DNA of 64,000 nucleotides from Justusliebigvirus VEcB: sequence record OZ035773.1; one strand, written 5' to 3'. The stretch's first letter is position 1. The number at the start of each line of letters is the position of its first letter. The notes below the pieces were generated by a model. It ran no database searches. It was given only the letters and a program-made list of their open reading frames with translations, and was not told the origin of the DNA. The position numbers and the translations under genes are program-made. Below are positions 2,404 to 11,452 of this stretch, piece by piece.

Positions 2404-4290
2404 ATGTATCCTATTCCTTTATTTATGTCAACAACATCAGCTTCAGTAGTAACAGCTACATCTATAACTACTTCCTCTATTGGTATTGCAATAGTTGGTG
2501 GTAAAAAACAACTGACATACACAGTTACACCCGAAGATGGTGCGTTATTTGATATAGCTTTTTCATCTTCAGATAATACCAAAATGGTTATAGATAATAA
2601 TGGTATGATGGAGTTTGTTGCTGAAGGTGGTTTTGATGCAATAATGACAGCTAAAAATAATTTAGGTGCTGTCTTAACTGATCAATCTGGTGGTTATGCT
2701 TCAGAATTAAGTGTGTACACTGAAAGTCTATCGGCTATGGATGTAGGCACTACTCAACAGTTGGTTGCTACAATCCGTCCAGAAGGTGCTAAAGACCTTC
2801 CAGACATGGTAATTACATACACCACAACAGATCCAGAAGTAGCTACTGTAAGCCCTACAGGATTAATAACTGCTCTTAAAGATGGCAATTGCCGTATAGG
2901 TTGTACTGCAACGTATCAAGGAACAGTTGTGGCCTCTGATAGTTCTTATTTAGGTGTTAATGCTATTCCTGTTATTTCTAATGTAACAGCCGTGGCAAAC
3001 AGTTATGGAGACGTTCGTGTTGCTTGGGATGTAACTGATCCGCTAGATGGTGATACTTATACTGTAGAAGTATTAGATTTAAGTGATAATAGTGTCCAGT
3101 GGACTACAACAACCACGAATACTTACGCCTACTTTGATATCTCTGACTCTATTCCTCTTTATGGGTTTGCTCCAACATACCTTAAAATTAGCGTTAAGAG
3201 CACCAAAGCAGCAGCCGTTATCTTTAATAACTCAATAGCTACAGATGATTCATTCATTAAAGAAGTTATTGTCTTTGCTGGACAAGATAACGTAAATGCA
3301 CACTTTACAGAACTATCTGGTGCAAATAAAGCAGCAATGAGTAGCACAACAGCCCGTAATGCATATGCTACGCAACGTGGTTTAGCAAATGCTGAAGTTC
3401 TTCCGTTAAATACAGCTTCTGGATCATCAGCAGCAGATAAATATGCAGATGATAAAGCTGGAACAGGTACACCAGACAACTACTGGTATGATCTGGATAA
3501 TACAACAGATGGGCCATGCTTAACTAACTTTATCACTAAAGTCACACCTTATGCAAGTAAGGTTAAAGCAATTATTTGGGGACAAGGTGAAAATGATGCT
3601 GTATCAGCATCTTCAACTGTTGCAGGTAGGTACAGTAACACTACACGTTACCATGATGCTACAATAGCTATCTTTGATAAGATGCGTACAATAGTTCCTG
3701 CTTCTCAAGCAAAAATTGTTTGGCAGATCCTAGGACGTTCTTATTTATATGGTGTAGAAGTTAATGGTGTGGATTGGCAGAAGTACAGAAATGTACAAAG
3801 AACCATCTCTACAGCACGTGATGATGTTATCATTGGTTCTTGGGTAGATGGTGCTGAACGTTACAGTGGCTATGTTTATGAAGAAGGTATTGATGGTCGT
3901 ATCCATTATATTTCTTCTGTATACCAAACAGCAGCTACAAAACTTGCTAAATCAGCAGCAGACGGTACAGACTTAACATCAACGTCACCTGTTTGGGTTG
4001 ATATGTCTGTTCCAACAGGAGGAGCCGCTGTAAGACAAGCTAACCAAGATGTAATTATCTCTTGGGAACCAGCAGGATATACTAAACATTACTTCCGAAA
4101 TGTAAACGTCCTCACAGCAGCAATTCTTACAGAACAAACCCTGGGTACTAACACTTACACATTTACTTATGCAGATCAGGTTGAACAATATGGATTTGCA
4201 GCAGGTACAACAGCGTTTGATGTTGCACACTATGATGCTGATAATGACGTGTTATCACCTCTTGTCAGATTTACAGTCAATGTTACATAA
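2404..4290 (+). CDS. Tail fibre/tailspike-like protein with Ig-like domain and SASA/SGNH-type carbohydrate esterase-like domain
   Basis: AAGGAG RBS; N-terminal Ig-like (BIG2-type) segment; central IIWGQGENDA motif resembling sialate-O-acetylesterase-type esterases. Confidence 0.5.
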   Translation: MYPIPLFMSTTSASVVTATSITTSSIGIAIVGGKKQLTYTVTPEDGALFDIAFSSSDNTKMVIDNNGMMEFVAEGGFDAIMTAKNNLGAVLTDQSGGYASELSVYTESLSAMDVGTTQQLVATIRPEGAKDLPDMVITYTTTDPEVATVSPTGLITALKDGNCRIGCTATYQGTVVASDSSYLGVNAIPVISNVTAVANSYGDVRVAWDVTDPLDGDTYTVEVLDLSDNSVQWTTTTTNTYAYFDISDSIPLYGFAPTYLKISVKSTKAAAVIFNNSIATDDSFIKEVIVFAGQDNVNAHFTELSGANKAAMSSTTARNAYATQRGLANAEVLPLNTASGSSAADKYADDKAGTGTPDNYWYDLDNTTDGPCLTNFITKVTPYASKVKAIIWGQGENDAVSASSTVAGRYSNTTRYHDATIAIFDKMRTIVPASQAKIVWQILGRSYLYGVEVNGVDWQKYRNVQRTISTARDDVIIGSWVDGAERYSGYVYEEGIDGRIHYISSVYQTAATKLAKSAADGTDLTSTSPVWVDMSVPTGGAAVRQANQDVIISWEPAGYTKHYFRNVNVLTAAILTEQTLGTNTYTFTYADQVEQYGFAAGTTAFDVAHYDADNDVLSPLVRFTVNVT

Positions 4291-6911: not shown

Positions 6912-7526
6912 TTAAATCTTAAATTCTTCGTTGTTAAATGAATCCAGTGTACGTACTTCTGGTTCTTTGGGAATGAAAACGTCTTTTACAAAGCGGAACA
7001 TAGGGAAACGTTCTGCCATTTTACGGACGTGTGCTTCTTTACCTGTGTATCGGTGATTAATAGTACAAATATTAGTTTTCAGTGCAAATTCAAAATCTGG
7101 ATGATATACATAATTTTGACCATCCCAGTAACACAAGCAAATAGCTACATCAAAGTTCCATACGATTTCACTGCGTACACCTTCTTCCATGATCATAAAG
7201 TTAAACTTAAGATCTTTATAGTATGCTTCAAATACCCATTTCAAATGTGGTAGTTCGGCATAAGTGTGTTCTGTTTGCTTAGTAAGTTGTTTAACATTAC
7301 GTGCACCAACACCCAACATCAAAAATTTCTCTACTAATACGAGTGTATTGTGGTTAGGCATACGCAAGTAAATGTCAATATCTTGCGCAGGTTTCTCTAA
7401 TCGCCAATCACGTACAGCGCCGCCAGCTACAATTGCAAACGGATCTACCAGTTGGCACATACGTAATACTTCTAAAGCTCGTACTTTTTGATCTTCAATA
7501 TTCATATTTTCTCCTATCGTGTCCAC
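6912..7526 (-). CDS. Nucleotidyltransferase, tRNA-NT/poly(A) polymerase head-domain-like
   Basis: VAGGAVRDWRL...DIDIYL matches the GGAVRD ... DxD signature of the CCA-adding/poly(A) polymerase family; only 204 aa (head domain only). Confidence 0.5.
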   Translation of the reverse strand: MDTIGENMNIEDQKVRALEVLRMCQLVDPFAIVAGGAVRDWRLEKPAQDIDIYLRMPNHNTLVLVEKFLMLGVGARNVKQLTKQTEHTYAELPHLKWVFEAYYKDLKFNFMIMEEGVRSEIVWNFDVAICLCYWDGQNYVYHPDFEFALKTNICTINHRYTGKEAHVRKMAERFPMFRFVKDVFIPKEPEVRTLDSFNNEEFKI

Positions 7527-8110
7527 TCTTTATGTTGTTCTACATGCTCAAGCATTTCATTATATAGTGCTTTAAGATGTGGAACAACTCTTTCATCTTC
7601 AGTTTCAAAGAATTTTGTAAGCTGTTCTGCCTTAGCCTTCAACCAGCAAAGATGTGCTTCAATTTCAGTATTAAAACGTCCCAGCGTTATAACACGTCCA
7701 TCGCGTTGAATATGGGCTTTATACTTTTTACGATCTTTTTCGTAACTACAACCTACCATAGTTCCATGAGATCTTTTACTTACTCTATAAGCTAAGAACT
7801 TGTTAAGATCTCCTGTTACTAAAAGACAGGTATCGGGAGAGTAAACTCTCCCTCCTATAATATCTTTATCAAGTTCTAAGTTTTCCCAGTTATCCCACGT
7901 TTGCAACCAAGAATAGAAATTGGAGAACAACTTCCATTCTTCACAAACCGTCACCCCATTATAACACGGATCACGTTCTTGTTGACAAGGGGAGTAACAC
8001 CTCCCCAACATAGCCATCCATTTCATATAATGCGGCGTTAGTTTCTTACTACCAGGTAGTGTACTCTCGCCTTCCAAATCATTAATACCTTCACCATATA
8101 CGGTAAGCAT
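7514..8110 (-). CDS. HNH-family homing endonuclease with AP2-like DNA-binding domain
   Basis: WMAMLGRCYSP...YNGVTVCEEW...LDKDI...YSPDTC pattern typical of phage HNH endonucleases; C-terminal RDGRVITLGRFNTEIEAH AP2-like segment. Confidence 0.55.
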   Translation of the reverse strand: MLTVYGEGINDLEGESTLPGSKKLTPHYMKWMAMLGRCYSPCQQERDPCYNGVTVCEEWKLFSNFYSWLQTWDNWENLELDKDIIGGRVYSPDTCLLVTGDLNKFLAYRVSKRSHGTMVGCSYEKDRKKYKAHIQRDGRVITLGRFNTEIEAHLCWLKAKAEQLTKFFETEDERVVPHLKALYNEMLEHVEQHKEWTR

Positions 8111-8137
8111 AAAAACTCCTTTAAAATCAAAGAGATG

Positions 8138-11100
8138 TCAGTGACAAGTTGACCATGAACTACCAACATCGTAACCAGCAGTGAGAGGTACATTAAGATT
8201 GTAATACTCACCAGCTTTATTAACAGCGATAGATGCTAATTCTCCGGCACGACTGTAGGCTGTAAACCAACCACCTTTCGGAGATTCATGTACGTTAGCC
8301 CAAATCTTGCCAGTACGTTTCTCTTCCTCTTCTTTCCAGGCATTAACTTTATCCAAACATTCTTTATCAATTTTCTTTTGTTCTTCTGGATCATCAACTT
8401 GAGTCCAACCTAAAGATTCTTTAGAGAACCATTTAAAATGCACCAGATCACGAGTTACTTCAAGCTGTGCTTCATCGTGATATGCAATCATTTGTTGAAC
8501 GAATGACTTATTTTTCCAGTCATCAACAAAAAAGTCAACAGCTAATCCTTCTTCTTCGATAAGATCGTCGTAGATAACCATTGCTCTTTTTGCACAAATA
8601 ACACCACCACTCTGGAACAGAGAGTTAAGTATTGCGTGTGCAGATCGTGTAGGTACTTTTCTACCATCAATACCGAGAATGTATTTCTTACCTGTTTTAA
8701 CCCAAAAATCATGCAGACGTTCTTTAAGAAGCGCAAGAGGTTTTGCAGCTTCCCAGAAAGCATCGTATACAAGCTGTCCTGTATACATATCACTACCTAT
8801 AGTTTTTGCTACTTTTGCAGCTTGAGCACCATAAGTAATACCATACTTAACAGATTTAGCAGGGCTTCGTTCAAACTTACGACCAATAGTGTCAGAAATA
8901 CGTCGAGCCATCATTGTATGAACATCATTAGGTTTTTCCAATAATAGAGCATTACAATATTCGTGTGGTTCCTGCTCGTACCGCCAACAGTTTCCTGTGA
9001 TGGTAATGCAGTCTTTCTGACGCATGACCCACGTACCAAGTTCTGTTTGTGGACACCAAACATCCTCTACACCCCACTCTTCAATAGTCAAACTTTGAAC
9101 AGGAATGTGAGAGCGGTTAGCCAATGTTGCCACTTTTACTTTCTGCTCTTTTGTATTGAAAGCTACAGAGATATTGCCTCCATGCACCAGGTACGAGGCA
9201 GTTAAAGCTGCTTCAAAAAGTTCACCTGGGTTCTGCGCCCAACGCCAAACAGGTTTTTGTTTATGTTCGTGCCAGTAACCATCTGCAATCAAGAAACCTT
9301 CCAAGAAAGCTACACGCTCGGCATGAGACATATTAACTACACGCTCTACCCACGGAACATCCCATTTACCTTGTTGAACAGAAGTTAAACTATTTACCTG
9401 ATCTTGTTCCATGTTAAATGGAGCATTACAAATAATATTATCTCCTGTGCAAAGCTCGGCAGTTGTTCTGACTTTAGGCACATAAGTATTCCCTGTACTA
9501 CGAGTATTAACATACCAACGGTGATCTGCTGTTGCACGATAAGTATGGGATTTTCCTTTAATCTCAAACGTCTTACTATTTTTATAGAAGACCTTACCTT
9601 TTACTTTAGTCCATTCTTTAAGTCCTGTTTCTGGGTTATATCCTAAGATTTCATCCCCTTCTTGTAGATCGTGATAACCAACCCAACCTTTACGGGTTAG
9701 TGCTTGTGCATCCATAGGTACACAGTAGTGTGATTCTATTTTTGCCTCAAGAGAATCAAAGTCATAACCAATTTGGAAGTATTTTGGAACTTCTACACCA
9801 AATAAGTTACGCATTTCATATCCGTACAGAGATGTTACACGTGGGATATTTGCTACTAACCTATGTTTCATACGAGACGTAGCTGCATCACACGTTGCAG
9901 CAGGAGTTGGTATACGACCATCAGCCCTTACTGCTGCCAGATAACCTTTATCGTAATCCTCTTCATCTTCTTCCCAATCAGCACCACCCCCTAGAATAGA
10001 GTTCCTACGGTGTTTATATGTAAGATACTGCACAATCTGCGTAGCATAAGGAAACTTTTCACCTAGTGCTTCCAAATTAGGACAAATATCTTTCTCTTGC
10101 CCTTTTGTAAAGGAAGGGTTAGTAAGCACTTTAACACCACGACCTTTAGCTTTAGCAATACGATCTCTTAGTTTCCATTCCAAAGTTTCTGGTGTGCACT
10201 CCAGATGATCACATCTGTCCTGGCAGAAGTTAGATGCTAACGTTTGATCAACATAGTCACGAATAGCTTTCTCCATCTGTGCTTCATCTTTCTTAATCTT
10301 AGTGCCAGATTTAAGAGTGATATCTTTATCTTTATATTCAGATGGACTCCAACCTAAACCAACTAACCAGTTTTTAATATGTGTAGTGTCGTCTAAAGTA
10401 GCAGGTACTGTAGGATCACAAATAGGTTCTTCTGCTGGAATAGGTAGTTTAAACTCTTTACCTAGTGCAAATAACCACCAACCATCTTCTTTTTGTACAA
10501 GTTCACCAGAATGTTTCTCTGCAAACTTTATCATGTTACTTGAAGGTTCACCATTCTTTTTAAACTGGAGTTTAGGTGGAATGAATGATTTCAAATAACC
10601 TTTGGTAGCAGGTTTAGGAGGTAGCACAGGTTCTGCCTCTAAACGACATGCTTCCATTCGAGCATCCAGATCACGAATATTATCTTCTGCTTGTTTCATA
10701 TTGAAAGCAAAGCCACGGTGCTCTTGACGTGTAATAATATCAGCTACACGTTGTTCTAAGTTAAATGGTTCAGACCACTTATTATAATCACCCCACTCTT
10801 CCATCAAATAACGGAACACTGCGGTGTTAGCTTTGTTATCGTAAATACAGTAATACAGCATATCTGCTGCAAATGTTTTAAATCTTTCAGTTTCAGGAAT
10901 GTTTTTTCTAAAATCAATTTTAACATCCCCTCCAGCTTTCTTAGATAACTCTGCCAGACTATGACCACCGAAGCGATCAGGGTTTAGTGTCTTACTTAAG
11001 ATCATAGTATCACAAATTTCAATGTTACTATTACCCCAAGTATTGTACTTAATACTGTAGTTGAGTTTAAAAAATAATTTAATTGCCAGTAAGTCAAAGT

Positions 11101-11452
11101 TAATGATGTTATGTCCAACTACTTTGGTAATTTTATAGTTTGAATTACCTTTAAATTTACCTGTTCCATTTACAAAATCAGGAAAATCTTTAAGAGGGAA
11201 ATGGGTATATTCTAAATGCTCATATTCCTCCAGTCGGTATTCATACTTTCCGTCAGTCTCAACATACGGACGACCATCGAAAAGATATTTATCACCATCA
11301 TGGAAAGCAATAATCTCTCCAGTATCATGACTTTCGCACACAATACAGTGCATTGCAAAACTATCTTTTAAACGGTATGGACTTGCCAAGTAATCTACAC
11401 TTTCGTCATTAAGCAAGTTGTTACTTTCAATGTCGAAAGTAAAAGCTCCCAT
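8138..11452 (-). CDS. DNA polymerase, family A, interrupted by an intein
   Basis: Exo I FDIES; motif A DFDSLEAKI; motif B RSPAKSVKYGITYG; motif C YHDEAQLE; 245-aa in-frame insertion immediately after motif A. Confidence 0.9.
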   Translation of the reverse strand: MGAFTFDIESNNLLNDESVDYLASPYRLKDSFAMHCIVCESHDTGEIIAFHDGDKYLFDGRPYVETDGKYEYRLEEYEHLEYTHFPLKDFPDFVNGTGKFKGNSNYKITKVVGHNIINFDLLAIKLFFKLNYSIKYNTWGNSNIEICDTMILSKTLNPDRFGGHSLAELSKKAGGDVKIDFRKNIPETERFKTFAADMLYYCIYDNKANTAVFRYLMEEWGDYNKWSEPFNLEQRVADIITRQEHRGFAFNMKQAEDNIRDLDARMEACRLEAEPVLPPKPATKGYLKSFIPPKLQFKKNGEPSSNMIKFAEKHSGELVQKEDGWWLFALGKEFKLPIPAEEPICDPTVPATLDDTTHIKNWLVGLGWSPSEYKDKDITLKSGTKIKKDEAQMEKAIRDYVDQTLASNFCQDRCDHLECTPETLEWKLRDRIAKAKGRGVKVLTNPSFTKGQEKDICPNLEALGEKFPYATQIVQYLTYKHRRNSILGGGADWEEDEEDYDKGYLAAVRADGRIPTPAATCDAATSRMKHRLVANIPRVTSLYGYEMRNLFGVEVPKYFQIGYDFDSLEAKIESHYCVPMDAQALTRKGWVGYHDLQEGDEILGYNPETGLKEWTKVKGKVFYKNSKTFEIKGKSHTYRATADHRWYVNTRSTGNTYVPKVRTTAELCTGDNIICNAPFNMEQDQVNSLTSVQQGKWDVPWVERVVNMSHAERVAFLEGFLIADGYWHEHKQKPVWRWAQNPGELFEAALTASYLVHGGNISVAFNTKEQKVKVATLANRSHIPVQSLTIEEWGVEDVWCPQTELGTWVMRQKDCITITGNCWRYEQEPHEYCNALLLEKPNDVHTMMARRISDTIGRKFERSPAKSVKYGITYGAQAAKVAKTIGSDMYTGQLVYDAFWEAAKPLALLKERLHDFWVKTGKKYILGIDGRKVPTRSAHAILNSLFQSGGVICAKRAMVIYDDLIEEEGLAVDFFVDDWKNKSFVQQMIAYHDEAQLEVTRDLVHFKWFSKESLGWTQVDDPEEQKKIDKECLDKVNAWKEEEEKRTGKIWANVHESPKGGWFTAYSRAGELASIAVNKAGEYYNLNVPLTAGYDVGSSWSTCH
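8990..9724 (-). mobile_element. Intein in DNA polymerase (245 aa, Cys1 ... Asn245, +1 Cys)
   Basis: Begins CVPMDAQ (codon TGT at 9722-9724), block B TADH, ends ...DCITITGN followed by Cys; internal FLEGFLIADGYW resembles a LAGLIDADG motif; host protein without it is 859 aa. Confidence 0.75.

Follow-up and report, generated by a model that had tools for sequence, protein, structure and literature searches.

We report that the replicative family A DNA polymerase of a phi92-like coliphage (Justusliebigvirus, subfamily Stephanstirmvirinae) is interrupted by a 245-amino-acid (aa) element that is very probably a cis-splicing, horizontally mobile intein. The gene lies in a 64,000-nucleotide (nt) stretch of sequence record OZ035773.1, referred to here in its entirety as the window. 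Judged by its conserved residues, the element is almost certainly competent for splicing. It occupies residues 577-821 of the polymerase precursor (CVPMDAQ...ITITGN), between the flanks ...DFDSLEAKIESHY and CWRYEQ, and is inserted 12 residues past the catalytic Asp of motif A. The host protein contains both motif A (palm) and motif B (fingers) of family A polymerases, and its gene is 98-99% identical at the nt level to those of, among others, Salmonella phage UAB_1 and the Escherichia phages phi92, ESCO32, cardinal, PD06 and PaulScherrer. The gene and its parts are arranged as follows:

8138..11452, minus strand: open reading frame (ORF) of the family A (T7-like) DNA polymerase precursor, 1104 aa plus stop (ORF list, Pfam DNA_pol_A match)
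9725..11452, minus strand: N-extein, polymerase residues 1-576, with the C-terminal end ...GYDFDSLEAKIESHY forming motif A with catalytic Asp564 (alignment of the intein-less allele with T7)
8990..9724, minus strand: intein, 245 aa, Cys1 to Asn245 (735-nt indel relative to phage alia, family hidden Markov model, HINT fold of the AlphaFold2 model, Foldseek)
8138..8989, minus strand: C-extein, 283 aa plus stop, beginning CWRYEQEPHEY and holding motif B (KSVKYGITYGAQ)

The limits of the element are given by an empty allele. The polymerase gene of phage alia is 99.1% identical to that of the window and lacks exactly 735 nt, the only gap in the alignment. Alia and at least 18 other listed genomes match the gene in two segments that together cover 78% of it at ~99% identity. 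Both the intein and the C-extein open with a TGT codon, which leaves the exact boundary uncertain by one codon. A first-pass annotation, made from the letters of the window, had predicted that removing the element would restore an 859-aa polymerase; this is precisely the length of the alia product, and the extein-only sequence aligns with intein-less relatives continuously across the junction.

The empty allele also places the insertion within the polymerase fold. Aligned with T7 DNA polymerase, the alia protein shows no gap at the junction (E = 2e-13, motifs A and B covered). At motif A, where the T7 alignment includes IDASGLELR, ydfdsleakieshy^Cwry of the empty allele pairs with IDASGLELRCLAHF^MARF of T7 (the caret marks the insertion point), and at motif B ksvkygitygaq pairs with AKTFIYGFLYGAG, which agrees with the annotated position after motif A. 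Pfam DNA_pol_A (PF00476) matches the empty allele over profile positions 90-344 (E = 3e-13) and spans the junction, whereas in the intein-containing polymerase the match is limited to the part downstream of the insertion.

The element itself has the residues and the predicted fold of an intein. Cys1, T65-x-x-H68, Asn245 and Cys+1 are all in place and represent splicing blocks A, B, F and G. An AlphaFold2 model based on an 85-sequence alignment adopts a HINT fold with a mean predicted local distance difference test score of 92.5 and a predicted template modelling (TM) score of 0.90. Foldseek returned 41 matches in the PDB at E<=1e-3, all of them intein, BIL or hedgehog HINT structures; the top matches were the endonuclease-bearing TliVMA and PhoVMA and the AceL NrdHF intein, and PI-SceI and the Ssp DnaB mini-intein were also among them. 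In a six-frame translation of the window, the profile of the intein family described below matched the element with E = 1.2e-95 as its sole hit, with no second copy in the 64 kb. Searched on its own, the intein gave just a sub-threshold LAGLIDADG_3 match in Pfam and no match in PHROGs. About 34 isolated, propagating phages carry the element inside their only family A replicative polymerase; together with the strong purifying selection described below, this is indirect evidence of protein splicing.

These results bear out the intein call of the first-pass annotation. Its coordinates (ORF of 1104 aa, element at 8990-9724, 245 aa, residues 577-821) are exact, and the Cys start (CVPMDAQ), the block B TADH (residues 65-68) and the terminal Asn followed by Cys are present as it described. 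It had overlooked a Trp-Cys-Thr (WCT) triplet, to which we return below. The empty allele in 99%-identical phages, the continuity of the host protein, the HINT fold and an existing GenBank annotation of the same element all agree with its identification as an intein.

We considered whether the 245 residues could instead be a permanent, non-splicing accessory domain, of the kind that aids processivity or binds a partner. Some lineages of family A polymerases do have insertions of their own close to the thumb and fingers, and the case for protein splicing made here is built on sequence and structural modelling. However, viable phages with 99%-identical polymerase genes lack exactly this element, and 245 retained residues placed 12 past the motif A Asp would split the palm. 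The same element is also found in unrelated host proteins, where it always runs from Cys1 to an Asn followed by Ser, Cys or Thr. Because of the empty allele, the host continuity, the predicted HINT fold and these unrelated hosts, we regard the chance of an accessory domain as close to nil.

The intein itself is not new, and a mobile intein in a phage replication gene is an element of an ordinary kind. In GenBank, the records of the sister phages PaulScherrer (Bas60, MZ501100) and SD2 (PQ821640) label the gene 'intein-containing DNA polymerase precursor', and the PaulScherrer record contains a 735-nt 'intein' mat_peptide (locus 3232..3966). This feature is offset by one codon in the 3' direction (Val2 to Cys+1) because of the TGT/TGT ambiguity at both junctions. 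The PaulScherrer and SD2 inteins are the same 245-aa element at the same site, with 99.2% protein identity (two substitutions). Many other records of this phage group call the gene only 'hypothetical protein' or 'DNA polymerase'. A 2024 paper stated that no inteins had been reported in coliphages (PMC11162368), and in the literature searched, the BASEL collection paper confines itself to noting that inteins came to light during annotation. Since sister records already mark the intein and inteins are common in phage replication genes, its plain annotation carries little weight; of greater interest are its mobility, its active site and its middle domain.

The distribution of the element is sporadic, with copies in 33-34 of ~120 related genomes. 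The same intein is present at 98% aa identity in Phapecoctavirus phages such as anhysbys, ESCO5 and ZCKP1. The inteins of the window and of anhysbys have 95.8% nt identity overall, rising to 99.3% over the 3' 450 nt, compared with 72.4% for the N-extein and 79.9% for the C-extein. Because the intein DNA is 96-99% identical between the two genera and the flanks only 72-80%, the intein was transferred recently, and the comparison shows a lateral transfer of the intein alone. The window copy is itself a mosaic of two haplotypes, with no difference from PaulScherrer in the first 287 nt and an anhysbys-like remainder (Phapecoctavirus type). In this second part, the 3' 60% of the intein, PaulScherrer differs from the window at 31 sites, mostly synonymous. 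Over the exteins, the intein-less alia differs from the window at 22 sites and the intein-bearing PaulScherrer at 29; the presence of the intein does not track extein similarity. Empty alleles of both genera keep the Cys+1 codon and share a near-identical site, GAATC(A/G)CACTAC^TGTTGGCGGTACGAGC. A co-conversion of the anhysbys flanks was first suggested because they seemed nearer to the window than to the congener nepoznato and was then withdrawn, as these flanks are 100% like those of the intein-less phAPEC8.

To place the intein among its relatives, we compared it with phage metagenomic cluster representatives, which make up the family as defined here. A word-indexed search found few relatives and a profile search 262; an exhaustive phmmer search raised the number of cluster representatives to 2235 at E<=1e-3, of which 820 pass E<=1e-10 and 77 pass E<=1e-30. 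Residues were counted in 106 family members plus 142 further domains (248 examined in all), with the following results for the two sets in that order:

Cys1: 106/106; 142/142
Thr-Gly-Asn end: 106/106; 140/142
V-W-C in block F: 105/106; 120/142
Trp two residues past the block B His: 97/106; 125/142
Ser, Cys and Thr at +1: 102, 2 and 2 of 106; 55, 44 and 43 of 142

The +1 residue is thus Ser, Cys or Thr in all 248. The Gly at the penultimate position, where His is usual, had been flagged as unusual. It is present as Gly244, but it is no oddity of this copy: because 246 of the 248 members end in Thr-Gly-Asn, we read it as a family signature and not as a defect. Phage class-1 inteins often have a penultimate Gly, and one of them is impaired when it is changed to His (PMC5050341). 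A Gly at this position is known to work both in phage inteins and in AceL NrdHF, and a penultimate His is not essential to an intein (PMC5050341, PMC7891396).

Other phage polymerases have members of the family at this motif A site (P0124, P0130, P0134), and many copies are located at polymerase motif B. Other hosts are primase-helicases, terminase-like proteins and tape-measure proteins; most members, however, are found in a conserved phage protein of small size whose motif is FDVYP^SAYANGW. This small protein is lysine-rich, with the conserved sequence NxPTNPxLWxxAKxxAKxKFDVYP^SAYANGWAAKWYKxKGGxW (P0002-P0060 and others), and inteins enter its motif at no fewer than three neighbouring points (YP^S, PSAY^S and SAYA^S). 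Some polypeptides carry two family inteins (P0142, P0156, P0159, P0168, P0187, P0254), among them one phosphoesterase-like protein and tape-measure-like ones. Two length classes stand out among the 142 further domains, a single-motif form of 240-260 aa (108 domains) and a form of 310-360 aa (27 domains).

The conserved positions outline an active site that joins hallmarks of class 1 and class 3, with two cysteines as candidates for the initiating nucleophile. Using the established block numbering, with Thr B:7, His B:10, Trp B:12, Cys F:4, Thr G:5, G:6 as the penultimate residue and Asn G:7 (PMC2807308), the splicing blocks of the window intein are:

9686..9724, minus strand: block A (CVPMDAQALTRKG) with the N-terminal nucleophile Cys1 (106/106 and 142/142)
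9515..9532, minus strand: block B core T65-A-D-H68-R69-W70, that is Thr B:7, His B:10, Arg B:11 and Trp B:12 (T65 and H68 100%, W70 97% conserved)
9017..9064, minus strand: block F DVWCPQTELGTWVMRQ, with Cys224 at F:4 and no His at F:13 (V222, C224, T227 and M234 100% conserved)
8987..9010, minus strand: block G CITIT243-G244-N245, then Cys+1 at 8987..8989 (Thr-Gly-Asn near-invariant in the family)

The Cys codon at +1 is retained in the intein-less alleles of alia and phAPEC8. In addition to Cys1, the intein contains a complete WCT triplet (Trp70, Cys224, Thr243; 97-100% conserved), which is the defining mark of class-3 inteins. The distance from Cys224 to Asn245 is 21 residues, and the class-3 Cys/Asn spacing is likewise 21 in MP-Be DnaB (C320/N341), Mle DnaB (C124/N145) and Msm DnaB-1 (C118/N139) (PMC2807308, PMC5222942). 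In the AlphaFold2 model, Cys224 lies near the C-terminal end of a long HINT strand, and Tori et al. located the first block F strand, which carries F:4, in this position (PMC2807308).

The solved intein most informative for this arrangement is AceL NrdHF-1-1 (PDB 6zgq), a class-3 intein that is split by nature and comes from a phage-like contig of Antarctic origin (PMC7891396). It was both the best PDB sequence-profile match (E = 1.6e-5) and the best mini-intein fold match (TM 0.80). Its active-site residues are S65, H68, R69, M70, C124 and T144-G145-N146. Position 65 (Ser in AceL, Thr in the window intein), H68 and R69 have identical numbers in both inteins, which also share the Cys at F:4, the Thr-Gly-Asn end, the absence of His at F:13 and G:6, and a phage origin. 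In AceL NrdHF, the mutation G145H abolishes activity and Arg69 at B:11 makes up for the missing His (PMC7891396). The two inteins differ in several respects. AceL NrdHF has Ala1 and is class 3 by experiment, whereas the window intein has an invariant Cys1; B:12 is Met in the former and Trp in the latter. AceL NrdHF is split and accompanied by a separate GIY-YIG gene, whereas the window intein is contiguous with an embedded LAGLIDADG half-domain. The sequence alignment between them is confined to the N-terminal 70 residues, and blocks F and G matched no solved intein by sequence, either as a single sequence or as a 26-member profile. The canonical class-3 inteins (MP-Be DnaB, Mch and Msm DnaB-1, Dra Snf2) share Trp B:12, Cys F:4, Thr G:5 and the 21-residue spacing (PMC2807308, PMC5222942), but most of them keep the penultimate His, and they have neither a residue-1 nucleophile nor a conserved Thr B:7. 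A profile search does not place them near the window family, and in Foldseek they rank 33-42. A phage association has been proposed for class-3 inteins (PMC3196547).

We weighed two routes for the start of splicing. In a class-3 route, Cys224 would attack the N-terminal junction directly and form a block F branched thioester, and Cys1 would not be the initiator. The whole WCT triplet at class-3 spacing (PMC2807308) speaks for this route, as does AceL NrdHF, the closest solved relative, an experimentally verified class-3 intein that likewise has no His at F:13 or G:6 and ends in T-G-N. However, class 3 is defined by the absence of a residue-1 nucleophile, and Cys1 is found in 248/248 members; by the sequence definition of PMC7891396 (no Cys at the N-terminal end), the intein is not class 3. 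Thr B:7 is invariant, as in class-1 inteins, and the sequence profile does not place the canonical MchDnaB1 and MsmDnaB1 nearby. PMC3196547, citing Tori and Perler 2011, moreover reports class-1 inteins with Cys at F:4 and describes these as polyphyletic. Inteins that combine a WCT triplet with Cys1 or Ser1 are on record, three of them in InBase. Taken together, we consider a class-3 route rather unlikely. That Cys1 starts splicing by the class-1 route is somewhat favoured by its conservation, and the most likely assignment from the residues present is a class-1 intein with Cys224 as a helper or relay in acyl transfer. Whether Cys224 could be an obligatory relay or initiator is a more tentative matter, to which we give limited credence. 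It is plausible from the residue patterns that one or more class-3 lineages descend from this family, having lost Cys1.

Under the class-1 assignment, a thioester would form after translation at the Tyr576-Cys577 bond through Cys1, assisted by Thr65 and His68. The N-extein would then be handed to Cys+1, perhaps via the invariant Cys224 (F:4). Cyclisation of Asn245 would free the intein, with Arg69 (B:11) substituting for the absent penultimate His as in AceL NrdHF. The predicted products are an 859-aa polymerase with the junction ...AKIESHY-CWRYEQEPHEYCNALLLEK and a free 245-aa intein.

Between blocks B and F, the HINT fold contains an inserted middle domain, which bears on how the intein might move:

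9110..9367, minus strand: middle domain, intein residues ~120-205, predicted single LAGLIDADG half-domain (DSSP of the AlphaFold2 models, Foldseek)
9278..9304, minus strand: LAGLIDADG motif LEGFLIADG, intein residues 141-149, with Asp148 presumed to bind metal (weak Pfam LAGLIDADG_3 match, E = 0.16)

The LAGLIDADG-like FLEGFLIADGYW picked out by the first-pass annotation is present and corresponds to this motif. In both AlphaFold2 models, DSSP assigned helix-strand-strand-helix-strand-strand; the final helix of the LAGLIDADG core was not clear. Submitted alone to Foldseek, the domain retrieved I-CeuI, PI-SceI, I-DmoI, TliVMA, I-AniI and WhiA, with probabilities of 0.99-1.0 for the first four. 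The E-values were weak (0.03-0.3), which is expected because the query has only 100 residues. It superimposed on intein and I-DmoI subdomains with a root-mean-square deviation of 2.0-3.5 A over ~70-78 aligned positions (2.0-3.4 A for the subdomains of PI-SceI and TliVMA). PI-SceI, PI-PfuI and the Tli and Pho VMA inteins likewise have a LAGLIDADG-fold insertion between blocks B and F of a HINT domain, but they are two-motif inteins, whereas the window intein has one motif and one subdomain per chain.

A two-motif relative exists in the same polymerase. Phapecoctavirus nepoznato, nieznany and ukendt carry a 324-aa intein at motif B (nepoznato, MN850571, locus 3001..3972, KYG^C...TLTGN^CTYG). It belongs to the same family as the window intein (32% identity; CVP...TxxH.W...V(F/W)C...TLTGN^C) and has a penultimate Gly too. 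Its site lies 50 residues downstream, at KYG^ITYG, where Cys takes the place of Ile. It contains two LAGLIDADG motifs; in the alignment of the two inteins, the first subdomain is missing from the window intein, which matches the second.

Conservation points to a function of its own for the middle domain. Few of its positions are at least 95% conserved across 107 members, and the plausible catalytic ones among them, Lys120, Asp148, Gly149 and Gln164, are 99% conserved at a domain identity of only 16-25%. The Asp-Gly pair ends the motif helix, and the Gln lies in the second strand within an xFxxxQ(K) pattern. I-CreI and I-CeuI are homodimeric single-motif enzymes; in I-CreI, the counterparts of this Asp and Gln are Asp20 and Gln47 (VTQ47K). 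Between haplotypes, the intein shows 29 synonymous and 2 non-synonymous changes, with a ratio of non-synonymous to synonymous rates (dN/dS) of 0.02-0.05, and the middle domain shows 15-16 synonymous and 2-3 non-synonymous changes (dN/dS 0.03-0.05). In comparison with the copy of Klebsiella phage KP13-16, synonymous sites are saturated and dN is 0.10. One member of the family, P0006, equals P0002 minus the middle domain in the same host protein. This pair shows that the HINT scaffold does not depend on the middle domain, and because the scaffold does without it, the conservation of the domain needs a reason of its own.

The alternative is a splicing intein with a catalytically dead LAGLIDADG remnant, spread passively by homologous recombination between co-infecting phages. 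This possibility is a serious one that nevertheless stays short of probable in our assessment. It fits the loss of one of the two subdomains present in the nepoznato intein, the sub-threshold Pfam match, the lack of a co-conversion tract and of target-site symmetry, the domain-free mini versions within the family (P0006, P0008, P0009) and P0127, which is without the Asp-Gly pair. A dead domain would be expected to decay, yet the four candidate catalytic residues and the low dN/dS described above indicate otherwise, the 240-260-aa form dominates, and the scaffold has no need of the domain. Passive recombination is also a poor fit to a transfer that took just the intein from one genus to another when the flanks are 72-80% identical. 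The suggestion of a possibly degenerate endonuclease therefore needs to be divided: one LAGLIDADG subdomain is indeed gone, but what remains is one complete half-domain, conserved with its catalytic-type residues under strong purifying selection, and does not look like a decaying remnant. That the half-domain is an active endonuclease we hold possible on these patterns, at somewhat less than even chances.

At the DNA level, the intein moves into empty alleles bearing the site GAATCRCACTAC^TGTTGGCGGTACGAGC. The trigger would most likely be a cut by the single-motif LAGLIDADG domain of the intein itself, working as a homodimer, which is the least certain step of the mechanism. A homodimer is proposed because a LAGLIDADG active site needs two motif helices. 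To our knowledge, the intein endonucleases characterised so far are without exception two-motif monomers, and the single-motif homodimers that have been characterised are free-standing or intron-encoded. The literature we searched contained no paper describing a single-motif intein endonuclease.

Several points weigh against this account of a self-splicing and self-mobilising element. The searched literature yielded no splicing or cleavage experiment on this intein, and its sequence does not decide between Cys1 and Cys224 as the initiator. The LAGLIDADG identity of the middle domain comes from its modelled fold only (Foldseek E 0.03-0.3, Pfam below threshold), and a sequence profile of the domain gave no significant match in the PDB. 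A single motif alone cannot build a two-helix active site. The polymerase subfamily has replaced two residues that most of the family conserves, Lys165 by Asn and His169 by Leu. The homing site, examined for the symmetry that a homodimeric enzyme might require, is not palindromic beyond chance, with 6/11 half-site matches, a value equalled by 74% of control windows. Finally, no co-conversion of flanking extein with this intein is visible between anhysbys and phAPEC8, and ordinary recombination through short conserved flanks may for this reason explain the transfer.

The motif B intein of nepoznato left a different trace in its host gene. From -60 to +210 around the site of the window intein, the nepoznato extein is 37-83% identical to congeners, compared with 97-98% elsewhere, and this diverged tract looks like a co-conversion tract of the motif B intein. 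The tract alters the target of the 245-aa intein by changing Cys+1 to Thr and TGTTGGCGG to ACGTGGAGA. As this destroys the target site, the two inteins may be mutually exclusive. The pattern suggests competition of inteins for neighbouring sites in one gene, in which the nepoznato intein has overwritten the target of the window intein.

The polymerase gene is directly followed by a gene for a second candidate endonuclease:

7514..8110, minus strand: HNH endonuclease ORF, 198 aa, directly downstream of the polymerase gene (PHROG 953, E = 8.5e-74)

The ORF covers only the C-terminal half of PHROG 953 (positions 198-399 of 420), and RefSeq relatives label it HNH endonuclease. Its PHROG match and its position next to the polymerase gene raise the idea that the intein is mobilised in trans by this free-standing enzyme ('collaborative homing'). 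However, about half of the related genomes have the gene, whether or not they carry the intein: the intein-less alia, VEcB and EmilieFrey and the intein-bearing SD2 and PD06 possess it, it is missing from the intein-bearing UAB_1, and intein-bearing Phapecoctavirus genomes have other genes in its place. Mobilisation in trans is hence highly unlikely, and a link between the two was dropped on these independent distributions. Because its presence is independent of the intein, the HNH gene appears to be a separate, free-standing insertion of the homing-endonuclease type. Further downstream, an ORF at 6912..7526 (minus strand, GTG start) resembles nucleotidyltransferases (PHROG 1614, weak Pfam PolyA_pol head domain) and overlaps the end of the HNH ORF by 13 nt. 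The HNH region (window positions 7400..8200) is closest to JohannJBalmer (99.1%) and the polymerase gene to UAB_1 and ESCO32 (99.2%); such differing best matches of neighbouring segments are consistent with mosaic recombination among these phages. ARAGORN found no tRNA genes in the 64-kb window.

In summary, the window intein represents a family with hundreds to thousands of members in phage metagenomes, characterised by Cys1, the WCT triplet and a T-G-N end. A fuller reading of the sequence patterns would make it an undescribed large phage lineage that uses a two-Cys relay (Cys1 to Cys224 to +1) or is a living class-1 ancestor of class 3, and that in addition encodes a LAGLIDADG endonuclease with a single motif, active only as a homodimer; this combination we regard as doubtful. 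Whether class-3 splicing is derived from class-1 splicing or convergent is disputed (PMC7664689 vs PMC3196547), and if that reading is true, a coliphage growing on E. coli K-12 would provide a tractable system for this question. A small intein that splices in E. coli without a penultimate His could also be of interest to protein engineers. As the host phages grow on E. coli K-12, the division of labour between the catalytic cysteines, the existence of a single-motif intein endonuclease and the competition between inteins for neighbouring sites are all directly testable.

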